IMG/VR virus record: IMGVR_UViG_3300042691_015370
Span: 32,001 to 96,000 of that record
DNA length: 64,000 nt
Direction: 5' to 3' (one strand)
Origin: a virus
Shown: in pieces, positions 49,501-56,997 of the stretch
How positions within the stretch are numbered: position 1 is the first letter of the stretch
How the letters are laid out: each line of letters begins with the position of its first letter
Made by a program: the position numbers and the translations under genes
Notes under the pieces: model-generated
Told to the model about the DNA's origin: nothing
What the model saw: the letters and a program-made list of their open reading frames with translations, nothing else
Database searches by the model: none

Positions 49501-52500
49501 AAAACGACCGCCACCGCCGTACCCACCATAGCCGCCATAGCCGCCACCGCCGCCGTATCCACCACCCATTCCGCCACCAGCAGCAGTGACAGGATCTGAC
49601 AAACGACCAGTTCTTCTAAACTCTTCATCAAGAATTTCTTGATCAGAAAGGTTAAAGCTCTTCTTTAATCTTTCGTACTGAGCGGCAGCTTGAGCTTGTT
49701 GTTGAGCAACATCTTCTGGGCTACCAGCACCGGGACTGAACGCCTGACCCAGAGCGCCGTATGCTCTTGTAGCTGCCTTCGCTCTTCTCTCTTGCCACCT
49801 AGCAGCACCCTCGTCTGCACTCAGTTCACCTGAAACGACGTCATCCCAAATGTCGGCACTCTTGCCCTCTGGGAACAGTCCTCTGCGAGCAGCAGCTTTT
49901 TGTCTTGGGGTTAAGGCTTCCCAATTACCATCACTCAAGTTACGCGCAGCCTGACGCTGGTCAGCAGCGAACTTGGCCTTACGGGCAGCAGCGTCAGACT
50001 CGGCTTTACGATCAGCATCTGCCGTTTCATTTTCGGCCCGAGCACGACGACGTTGCTCTGCTTTCTCCTGTCGCCGTTTTTCGTTCGCTTCGGCAGCCGC
50101 AGCAATAGCGGCTAGACGATCAGCTTCAGTGGCAGGACCGACAAAAGGAGTGCCACCACCATCAATAACATTAGTACCTGCACCCAGTGCTCTGCGCTCT
50201 GCGAGTCTAGCTCTTCTTGCTTCAATATATGGGTCTACTGGAGGTAGAGCAAGAGGCTGTCGTGGCCCATAAAGCGGAATTGGCACACCAGTACCCGGAA
50301 TGTCGGTACCAATCATTAACTCTCTAGCAGAGAAGCGGCGCTGTTCAGGGGTAACTCCCGGCCCCAAGGCAAGAGGTGTTGCAGATCTACCGAGTGCCTC
50401 AGCAGCGGTTGCAGCAGCATCAGTGCCCACAGCAACTGCATGCATCTCAAGAGCCGCCGTGTCCGCAAGGAGAGCTAGCCTCAGTTCTGATGCAGTAGCT
50501 GTAAGGGAATCTAATTCACTGACAAGAACGGCTCCAGAGACTCCCGTGGCAGTAGTACGAGATCTTGCTACTTCATTAGCTCTTGTGAAAATAGCGATCT
50601 GTTCTGGTGTGGCTTCTCCCGAAGCAACTAGGGGTCGCAATTCAGCAAAGTACTCACTTGGAGATAGCTTTGACTGACTCGTTGGGAACAGTGCGTCGGG
50701 ACCACTTAGTCTGTCACCTCTACCAACAATAATCCCCTGATCTTCAAGGATCTGGCGATAAGCTGGATCTAGACCCAGCATATTCTCCATACGATGCTGA
50801 GCTTCGTGCAGGGCTGTAGCCGGTCCAGCGCCGAGAGTTGCTGCACCAGCAGCACCAACCTCACGACTCGTGCCTCCACTAGCTACCCAATCGTCAACAC
50901 CAGCAATCATCTCTGAGTTCATTACCCAGCGACCATCACCCGTCATTGCCCCTAGACGGCCACGGAACTCATCGCTTAGTTCTGAAACAACCTCGGTTCT
51001 TAGATCACCCAGCAGGTTAGGTGCCCCTGCTTGCATAGAACGCATGTATGCTTCAATACCAGATGCGCTACCCAAAATGTCAGGACGACGAGGGGTGCTA
51101 TAAGCGTCAGAACCGGGACCAAGCTCTGGCGGGCGCTTGCCTTCTTGACTTCTGCGAAGTTCTTCCTCTACCTGCTGACTAATTACCTCTGCACTTGGCA
51201 TAAGGCTAACTTGTCTTGGGCTTGGCCCATAAATGGTGCGGTAACCATCATTTCCATAGTAATGAGACAACTTACTGGTGCCCGTCAGGCCCCAGTTTTG
51301 AGACACCGCCTCTGTGTCGTAAAGCGATCCGTAGCTTCCAGACTTAGCATCTAGCCATTCATTATAGGCTCTAATCATCCTTTGTCGAGTACGAAGCGAG
51401 TGATCATATATGTTGTCACGGAACCCTTCAATCCACTGTACATCACCCTCGTCCTCAAGCTGCATTTGAACGAAGTTGATAGCATCAGAAGATTGGGTTT
51501 TACGGTATCTATTGGGACGACTGAATGCTGTCTCACCAGAACCAAGCTCGCCCCTGAAAGGTGGTGGGAAGAGTTCGCTATATGAGAAGGCTCCCCTGAA
51601 GGGTGGTGGCTGTGTTCTGTAGCTTGGCAGTGGCGGAGGAATAGGTCCAGTGTAAGGTGGTAGTCCCCAACCGGGGCCTGAGTATTCGGGACGAGTAACT
51701 CCGGGCAGAGAACCAGTATAAGGAGGCGGTGTTAAAGCTTGCTTATTAGCATCCCATTGAGCTTCAAAGATCTTGTACTGAGCCTCGTCGTCGGTCAAAA
51801 TGCCACGACGAATCATGCGCTCAATACTTGCGGCCGCTGTTACACTAGAATCACGAAGCCGCTCCAAAGACTCTCGCAAATTGGCAGGTACCTCAAGCCG
51901 ACCAGCAGCTAGCCTCTGCTTTTCTGTCCATTCGCTACTATCATCAACGTCGGAACCAGCAAACAGCTTGTTCCACATGATGTCTTTGACACGCTTCTGT
52001 TGAGCAATCTGCTCGGCAGTGCCACGACCAACATCGTAACCAATAACCTCTGCACTAGGTACAGGGCTAAAACGAGATACCCGTCTTGGAGAAGGACCAA
52101 TAACGTTACCATATAGATCATAAGAAAGACCTATAGTACTACCGCCTAGCCCTTCACGAGCCAATCTTTCTTGAATTGCTCCTTGTCGCTGACGGCTTCT
52201 AGGGAAAGCTTCTGCAATTTCTGCACCCGGCTTATTCTCTGTTAGCATGAAGGGCAATGCAGCGTCTTCTATAGCCTGCATGGCAAGGAAGTTCATGTAG
52301 TCAGAAGACTGCGGCCTATTCGGAGTGCTGAAGATAGTGCGGCCCGTGCCTAGAGCAAGCTGCTCACGCACGAAGGAGTCAGTATCAAGACCATACAGCC
52401 AGTCTTTAAGCTCCCTGTTACGAGGACTCTTGCTCAAAACTTGTCCGAAGATATCACCCTCATTGCGAGAAACAACATCACGAACATTCCGAGCAGCCAA

Positions 52501-56997: not shown

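Follow-up and report, generated by a model that had tools for sequence, protein, structure and literature searches.

A giant siphovirus-type tape measure protein with a variable cassette of predicted kinase and zincin-like modules that may be carried into the host

Why should a phage tape measure protein (TMP) contain, ahead of its ordinary core, some 1,700 residues that read as a row of enzymes, and in which compartment would such enzymes act? This question is raised by a gene in a 64,000-nucleotide stretch of viral DNA, positions 32,001 to 96,000 of the IMG/VR record IMGVR_UViG_3300042691_015370, which is referred to here as the window and to which all coordinates refer unless another frame is named. 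The source record is linear, comprises 144,887 bp and belongs to an uncultured virus (CheckV completeness 89%). The gene in question (43597-56997, minus strand) has an open frame of 13,401 nt and a predicted product of 4466 aa (P0001), according to the list of open reading frames (ORFs) and their translation. A preliminary description of the window had read this product as a TMP with a polyvalent array of enzyme domains that would be injected into the host; the observation was partly confirmed and the interpretation partly supported by the present analysis. We describe P0001 as a siphovirus-type TMP in which seven joint-bounded modules are placed between an N-terminal segment and the core, and we hold it to be somewhat more likely than not that this cargo enters the host and acts there. 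The enzyme-like block is probably carried into the cell together with the phage DNA.

The assignment of the 4466-aa product to the tape measure proteins was upheld by its ORF, by a family match and by tail gene synteny. The NCBIfam model TIGR01760 (TP901-type TMP core) matched aa 2545-2894 with an E-value of 1.5e-15 and 57.1 bits (cut-off 28.8), and the alignment spanned model positions 3-335 of 349, which placed an ordinary TMP core after the cargo, as the preliminary description had proposed. This was the sole match obtained when the whole protein and its single modules were scanned with Pfam, PHROGs and NCBIfam; Pfam and PHROGs gave zero matches on the whole 4466-aa protein. The phmmer searches of the cargo, of the TMP core and of the relative P0003 (see below) against PDB sequences returned nothing useful. 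The only GenBank relative of the phage was Caudovirales GX15bay (MK557849, mangrove soil), with a TerL identity of 43.7%, and its 2,098-aa 'minor tail protein' matched the core and C-terminus of P0001 by tblastn. The TMP gene sits after chaperone-type genes and before distal tail genes, matching the layout of GX15bay, and the proteins flanking it were 25-49% identical to their GX15bay counterparts, with conserved order. Because the TIGR01760 match lies above its cut-off and the tail genes follow the same order as in GX15bay, the 4466-aa ORF is, as judged by these two comparisons, a genuine siphovirus-type TMP.

The sequence is known from one metagenomic record of an uncultured virus, which leaves room for the idea that the ORF is an assembly chimera or consists of two genes joined by a sequencing error. 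We consider this most improbable, since the frame is open over 13.4 kb with an even composition (the GC content is steady at 49-52% along the gene) and the surrounding gene order matches that of GX15bay. In addition, two giant relatives from independent assemblies, P0002 (4,213 aa, Logan) and P0003 (3,639 aa, ENA), encode proteins in which N-terminus, cassette, core and C-terminus follow one another as they do in P0001. The label 'actinophage', which had been used in the preliminary description, found no support, the GC content being about 50%.

The seven modules, which together cover aa 502-2200, are delimited by a repeated joint. Each of them begins at a [YF]S[TSDR]P sequence, mostly with LGxGxx just before it. 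The joint was observed seven times, compared to 0.22 occurrences expected from the composition of the protein, and only one further occurrence was detected across the ORFs of at least 100 aa in the 145-kb genome. The region of aa 450-2600 contained no start in frame that was coupled to a strong ribosome-binding site, so that there is no sign of a separate short TMP. The array is a bounded one, and its enzyme-type modules belong to classes typical of polyvalent proteins (PMC5512222). The motifs named in the preliminary description (HEAGH, SNYS/PYELTAE, HEAQH, SPSEYFAE and ARGRGLGSGMY) were all found where it had placed them, and the two copies of an unknown module that it had noticed, modules 5 and 6, proved to be paralogues (E 2e-9). 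For module 5, no family model in Pfam, PHROG or NCBIfam was matched.

The two modules that had been called kinase-like, modules 3 and 4, are paralogues as well (34% identity, E 5e-27), and the kinase fold was borne out for module 3 by structure prediction and by two structural comparisons. The AlphaFold2 (AF2) model of module 3, built from an 11-row alignment, reached a pLDDT of 72.4 and a pTM of 0.71 and had its strands and helices arranged in the sequence known from kinases. When this model was compared to the PDB with Foldseek, at least 500 matches had an E-value below 0.001, the top match was Rio2 (E 1.9e-6), and all 50 of the 50 matches listed were kinases or pseudokinases. The VIA-align program, which is independent of Foldseek, aligned module 3 with Rio2 over 173 residues with a Z-score of 13.8 and a root-mean-square deviation of 3.8 Å, and kinases or pseudokinases again accounted for every one of the 50 matches listed. 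A search of BFVD with the same model returned mostly viral kinases, the remainder being nidovirus replicase polyproteins and unnamed entries. The profile search against PDB sequences was weak yet consistent, with 40 of 42 matches of the kinase fold, headed by the hygromycin-B kinase APH(4) (E 0.005) and followed by WbdD, NleH1/2, KSR, RIO2 and OspG. Language-model features of the kinase module pointed to the OspG, ABC1/RIO1 and Pkinase clusters, at 0.94-0.95 (OspG family 0.95).

The pattern of conserved residues was in line with this fold. In the 11-sequence alignment, Arg1118, Glu-Gln 1145-1146, Asp1205, Asn1210, Asp1214 and Asp1225 were invariant. The Asp-Asn-Asp set (Asp1205, Asn1210 and Asp1225 in module 3) was kept in all 13 kinase-like copies, including module 4, and so was the region of the Gly-rich loop; module 4 has Ser-Pro-Asp where module 3 has His-Gly-Asp, with the Asp-Asn-Asp set retained. 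The domain is short, with approximately 70 residues after the metal-binding Asp, as in the RIO, NleH and OspG kinases. Neither module matched a Pfam, NCBIfam or PHROG kinase model at threshold, and the nearest Pfam match of the family was APH (E 0.0074, in two of six family members). Taken together, the model and the alignments show modules 3 and 4 as predicted minimal protein kinases, comparable in size to RIO, NleH and OspG, in which the Asp-Asn-Asp set is intact. Catalysis by these modules is likely, and we infer ordinary phosphotransfer as the reaction.

The kinase-like family, which carries arginine in place of a lysine (considered below), is very rare. When 1.84 billion protein representatives were scanned with HMMER for relatives of aa 488-1687, six proteins were recovered, all of them through the kinase-like domain; two were the giants, and the other four were free-standing (188-471 aa). 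Four further proteins with the domain came from a profile search. The rare free-standing homologues (within P0004-P0013, 188-471 aa) carry the same Arg-for-Lys domain, and one of them is encoded on a 124.7-kb contig.

Modules 2 and 7 had been described as zincin peptidases, and the part of that claim which stood was the motif. Module 2 contains HEAGH at 54196-54210 (aa 930) and SNYS/PYELTAE at 54034-54075 (PYELTAE at 54034-54054), and module 7 contains HEAQH at 50794-50808 (aa 2064) and SPSEYFAE at 50641-50664. The HExxH sequence is followed about 50 residues on by E-x-x-A-E, within the pattern P[ST]xY[SA]...E[LY]xAE, and both elements were kept at the same spacing in five copies from three proteins (two in P0001, one in P0002 and two in P0003). 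When Smith-Waterman scores were evaluated against 300 shuffles, z was 4.7 for modules 2 and 7, 19 for module 7 and the P0002 module, 5.1 for module 7 and the second P0003 copy and 12.8 for the P0003 copies with each other; these pairwise scores join the five copies in one chain, and hence in one family. The phmmer comparison of module 7 with the P0002 module gave an E-value of 1e-14. We take this pattern to resemble the combination of HExxH with 'E-F-F-A-E' in the lethal-factor and MtfA-type gluzincins, as a lead and not a test. The conservation of a metal-site signature across all five members of the family is a good argument for a metallohydrolase; modules 2 and 7 are shown to carry a signature of gluzincin type, and the zincin label applies at motif level. 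A word-index homologue search with a zincin alignment among proteins of 420-2000 aa found nothing. The AF2 model of aa 488-1061 (modules 1 and 2), for which the alignment had two rows only, had a pLDDT of 31.7 and was uninformative, which is not evidence against a fold. A second, degenerate zincin copy that had appeared in P0002 was rejected as an artefact of MAFFT, which had aligned short modules with the full-length giants and produced chimeric alignments.

The first slot of the cassette is less clearly characterized. The stretch ARGRGLGSGMY of module 1 (55306-55338) includes R-G-R-G-L-G at aa 556-561, which fits R-x-x-G-x-G, and a plausible helix-strand pattern follows it; a six-residue GNAT motif A is weak evidence on its own. 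The first slot of P0002 gave a sub-threshold Pfam GNAT match (E 0.0068, 17.1 bits compared to a cut-off of 20.7), and the similarity between module 1 and this GNAT-like segment was no higher than that of shuffles. The first cassette of P0003 (aa 434-534) had a weak Pfam match to the Arr-ms rifampin ADP-ribosyltransferase (ART; E 0.025), with an F-Y-H-G-T...P-G-D motif; if true, this module would add an NAD-using enzyme to the repertoire of the cassette. The GNAT and ART matches in the first slots of P0002 and P0003 are in keeping with the other modules; both are weak, however, and have no sequence relationship to module 1.

A comparison of related TMPs, suggested by the preliminary description as a check, revealed a shared N-terminus, core and C-terminus and a differing module content. 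The N-terminus of P0001 was 54% identical to aa 1-549 of P0002 and partially matched P0003. The core was approximately 40% identical to those of the giant relatives, whereas C-terminal identity was 71% for P0002 (over the last 400 aa of P0001) and 35% for P0003. Between these N-terminal and core regions, the three giants differed in the number and kind of their modules, and the first-slot modules were different. P0001 and P0003 each have two kinase and two zincin-like modules, compared to one of each in P0002; a hidden Markov model (HMM) built without the giants found the one kinase-like copy of P0002 and the two of P0003 with E-values of 7e-21 to 1e-29. The alignments show a constant TMP scaffold with a variable cassette among the relatives. 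No match was found when the cargo was compared to 50,697 phage records by megablast and tblastn, no relatives were recovered by a related-locus search of viral and metagenome contigs, and a word-index homologue search among proteins of 2456-7816 aa gave nothing.

The TMP of GX15bay represents the cargo-free form of this layout. It shares with P0001 the homologous core and C-terminus and the tail genes on either side, and it too has no cysteine. In contrast, its first 650 residues consist of plain coiled-coil repeats, among which neither HExxH nor joints nor enzyme-like modules occur. The part of P0001 that follows the cargo (after aa 2200) comprises 2,266 aa and is near in size to the whole GX15bay TMP, which has 2,098 aa. 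This similarity favours a different fate of the cassette, namely that P0001 is a polyprotein of the producer cell: its own zincins or another protease would sever the cargo at the joints prior to tail assembly, the enzymes would act late in infection and a TMP of about 2,270 residues would enter the tail. The repeated joints and the peptidase-like modules fit such self-processing, folded domains do not fit the tail tube, and lambda gpH is known to undergo processing. Nevertheless, the 500 N-terminal residues that precede the cargo are conserved in the three giants and start like a TMP N-terminus, which would be hard to explain if they were discarded, and in phage P23-45 the enzyme remains attached to the full-length TMP of the virion. 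For these reasons, and in view of the cysteine content described next, we regard processing in the producer cell as unlikely.

There is no cysteine among the 4466 residues of P0001, whereas about 70 would be expected at the proteome rate of 1.6%, as calculated from an approximate set of the other genes of the genome. P0002, P0003 and the GX15bay TMP are also free of cysteine. In contrast, the neighbouring 1795-aa tail protein has 11 cysteines, and the large phage proteins that match replication or repair enzyme families contain 0.9-2.1%. Some of the free-standing kinase homologues have one or two cysteines. The cargo is cysteine-free like the rest of the TMP and unlike the replication-type and repair-type large proteins of the same phage, which argues against its release in the producer cell. 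A cysteine-free cargo of this length fits the idea that it would share the fate of the TMP, staying with the virion and being threaded through its channel.

Protein kinases, acetyltransferases and ADP-ribosyltransferases need ATP, acetyl-CoA and NAD, respectively, which are cytoplasmic co-substrates. Because they depend on ATP or acetyl-CoA, kinases and acetyltransferases can work only in a cytoplasm. If the cargo is delivered to the host, as we favour, the full-length TMP would be incorporated into the tail while extended or unfolded and would leave it ahead of the DNA, with its C-terminal half forming a conduit. The cargo would reach the host cytoplasm, refold and phosphorylate, perhaps also acetylate, host proteins ahead of all phage gene expression. 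Cleavage at the repeated joints by the zincin modules would free the units, as Iyer et al. proposed generally for the metallopeptidases (MPTases) of polyvalent proteins. This last step may be stated in a stricter form, in which the TMP is a self-processing injected polyprotein, the LGxGxx[YF]S[TS]P joints are recognition sites of the zincins, and the kinases and other units are released after ejection. We put this forward tentatively, as a possible but doubtful extension. If true, it would provide the first defined cleavage code for polyvalent proteins and would make siphophage tails a general, swappable platform for effector delivery, beyond the single P23-45 RNA polymerase case. The repeated joint makes the proposed self-cleavage directly testable.

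Several points weigh against delivery of an active enzyme cassette. The lumen of a tail tube cannot hold folded domains; approximately 1,700 residues per TMP copy would therefore have to be kept unfolded, or the tail would have to be very long. TMPs are generally poor in cysteine, so that the argument from cysteine content is supportive and not decisive. In the kinase-like modules, the ATP-binding Lys of kinase strand 3 is replaced by an invariant Arg (Arg1118, on the third strand of the model), and the chemistry of these modules may differ from ordinary phosphotransfer; the YVxR stretch that includes Arg1118 aligned with the hygromycin-B kinase in the profile search. The zincin label lacks a family-model match: scans of the phage's own genome with PF18818, PF07737 and PF06167 gave no match at E≤10, the two-row zincin profile found no peptidase among PDB sequences, and hhalign of the five-copy alignment with the MPTase region of the N4 virion RNA polymerase returned a probability of 1%, with HExxH alone aligned. 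Of the GNAT assignment made in the preliminary description only the motif was retained, as no match to PF00583, PF13508 or another HMM was obtained for module 1 in the Pfam, PHROG, NCBIfam and own-genome scans and its language-model scores against phage GNAT clusters (0.83-0.85) were under the guide value of 0.9. Module 1 is thus a candidate GNAT, to be treated as a lead only.

The cargo might also serve to breach the cell envelope, with the HExxH modules acting outside the cytoplasm as hydrolases of the cell wall or of envelope proteins and the kinase-like and other modules being non-catalytic spacers or binders. Mycobacteriophage TM4 and Pb2 of T5 provide examples of TMP-borne lytic domains that would be consistent with such a role. 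The zincin modules match no cytoplasmic peptidase family, and most of the enzymes known so far from within TMPs are cell-wall hydrolases (review PMC6116005). However, retention of the Asp-Asn-Asp set and of the Gly-rich loop region throughout the 13 kinase-like copies argues for a nucleotide-dependent, hence cytoplasmic, catalysis, and the array of the relatives includes GNAT-like and ART-like modules, albeit weakly matched ones, that would need acetyl-CoA or NAD. We therefore consider a role confined to the envelope to be quite unlikely, and delivery of the cassette to the host cytoplasm remains the explanation that we prefer. If the cargo is delivered, long-tailed phages would bring ready-made protein-modifying enzymes into the cell before their genes are read, as a route to host takeover or counter-defence.

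Table 1. Features of the tape measure protein P0001 and of the adjoining tail genes (window coordinates).
Feature	Residues (aa)	Position	Strand	Basis
N-terminal region, helical, Pro-rich	1-501	55495-56997	-	kept in two giant relatives
Module 1, candidate minimal GNAT	502-670	54988-55494	-	R-x-x-G-x-G motif
Module 2, zincin-like core (aa 823-1061) after an uncharacterised N-terminal part	671-1061	53815-54987	-	HExxH/ExxAE, alignment with four other copies
Module 3, predicted minimal protein-kinase fold	1062-1311	53065-53814	-	AF2, Foldseek, VIA, invariant residues
Module 4, paralogue of module 3	1312-1555	52333-53064	-	34% identity; alignment of 13 copies
Module 5, unknown domain followed by a Pro-rich tail	1556-1824	51526-52332	-	paralogue of module 6
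Module 6, second copy of the unknown domain	1825-1965	51103-51525	-	paralogue of module 5
Module 7, zincin-like	1966-2200	50398-51102	-	motifs; homologous to P0002 module
Charged helical stretch, rich in Ala, with a Gly/Tyr-rich run at its end	2201-2544	49366-50397	-	translation, composition
TMP core (TP901-type)	2545-2894	48316-49365	-	TIGR01760; tblastn to GX15bay TMP
Three hydrophobic segments, the first with a GxGxGxxG run		49333-49392, 48322-48390, 47653-47739	-	hydropathy scan
C-terminal helical region	3131-4466	43600-47607	-	composition; comparison with P0002
Seven joints, [YF]S[TSDR]P	502, 671, 1062, 1312, 1556, 1825, 1966	51091-55494	-
Upstream tail genes (447, 288 and 74 aa)		57047-59649	-	GX15bay synteny; tblastn identity 43%, 34% and 49%
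Downstream tail genes (143, 133 and 1795 aa)		37394-43586	-	syntenic with the genes after the GX15bay TMP

Directly before the TMP core lies the Gly/Tyr-rich run GGGYGGGGGYGGYGGYGGGG (49420-49500, minus strand; aa ~2476-2500), which is followed by the hydrophobic GxGxGxxG segment; P0002 and P0003 have Gly-rich runs at the equivalent place before the core. The upstream 447-, 288- and 74-aa genes are, from their position, probably those of the major tail protein and of assembly chaperones. On the downstream side, the adjacent 143- and 133-aa genes (42754-43586, minus strand) both match one 129-aa gene of GX15bay at the equivalent place, as if a distal tail gene had been duplicated in tandem. The 1795-aa protein (37394-42781, minus strand) has internal repeats and matches a 1304-aa GX15bay protein annotated as 'glycoside hydrolase family 25'; it had no Pfam or PHROG match and is probably a tail tip or central fibre protein.

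The terminase, the probable portal, the head genes and the tail fibres are located further upstream of the TMP gene, and the replication genes (DnaE-type polymerase, primase-helicase and RecA) downstream. One large fibre gene (847 aa; window 61199-63742, minus strand) has an Mtd_N-like N-terminus, and another (794 aa; genome 95939-98323, L001 1939-4323, minus strand) contains collagen-like repeats. Both lie upstream of the tail-tube and TMP genes, which is an unusual position. The phage encodes a DnaE-type Pol III alpha subunit (1143 aa), RecA, a primase-helicase fusion and a PD-(D/E)XK nuclease (12560-17412 and 24877-30934, both minus strand). A 274-aa protein (35728-36552, minus strand) matched PF23140 (podophage GP4 fibre I protein gp80) with an E-value of 4.7e-18, as well as PHROG 240, in a phage whose other tail genes form a long-tail set. 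This neighbour had suggested that P0001 could be an internal or ejection protein of podovirus type; the idea was dropped after the TIGR01760 match and the GX15bay synteny had been found.

The closest experimental precedent for a delivered TMP cargo is gp96 of P23-45, a 5,002-aa TMP fused to an active virion RNA polymerase and present at full length in virions (Chaban et al. 2024, PMC10770324). Its authors called the link between the TMP and the RNA polymerase previously unsuspected, and the same study describes TMPs as sitting in the tail tube and exiting at infection (PMC10770324). Delivery of a TMP-fused enzyme has so far been shown experimentally for this one polymerase only. P0001 shares with gp96 its giant size, the placement of a cytoplasm-type enzyme in the N-terminal part and the ordinary TMP that follows. 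It differs in that seven modules (kinase, zincin-like and possibly GNAT) take the place of the single polymerase, and in that these modules are bounded by joints and preceded by a conserved N-terminal region of 500 residues. No sequence relationship between the two proteins was found, and the evidence on P0001 is that of its sequence. The locus adds a kinase and peptidase-like case, with a comparison set that consists of one relative lacking cargo and two whose cassettes differ. No published account of a TMP with a kinase, zincin or GNAT cassette turned up in full-text literature searches. A 2026 report describes modular effectors, related to TMPs, that belong to a contractile injection system of actinobacteria.

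The predicted kinases may be compared to RIO1/RIO2, NleH1/2 and OspG, which likewise comprise about 200 residues, with a kinase N-lobe and a shortened C-lobe. Rio2 was the best structural match, and for NleH2 the Foldseek comparison gave 0.63 of the target by TM-score. NleH and OspG are injected effector kinases, and the modules described here would similarly pass through a narrow channel. In contrast to these kinases, with which they share 9-16% sequence identity, the modules are embedded in a TMP and have Arg in place of the strand-3 Lys.

The second relevant group comprises the polyvalent proteins of phages and conjugative elements, which contain one to five MPTase copies, truncated kinases, GNAT and ART domains, vary in content between relatives and were proposed to be released by their MPTases (Iyer, Burroughs, Anand, de Souza and Aravind 2017, PMC5512222). 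The tape measure protein is mentioned zero times as a carrier in that paper (PMC5512222). P0001 and its relatives resemble polyvalent proteins in combining several conflict-type enzyme domains in one giant polypeptide of variable content, in the interspersion of zincin copies with other domains and in kinases without most of the C-terminal lobe. They differ in that PF18818, the MPTase model of polyvalent proteins, matches nothing here and the N4 MPTase aligns at HExxH only. Moreover, an insert separates the catalytic His from the Asp in the kinases of polyvalent proteins, whereas module 3 has His-Gly-Asp without an insert. P0001 thus combines two published ideas, the polyvalent proteins and the enzyme-fused TMP of P23-45.

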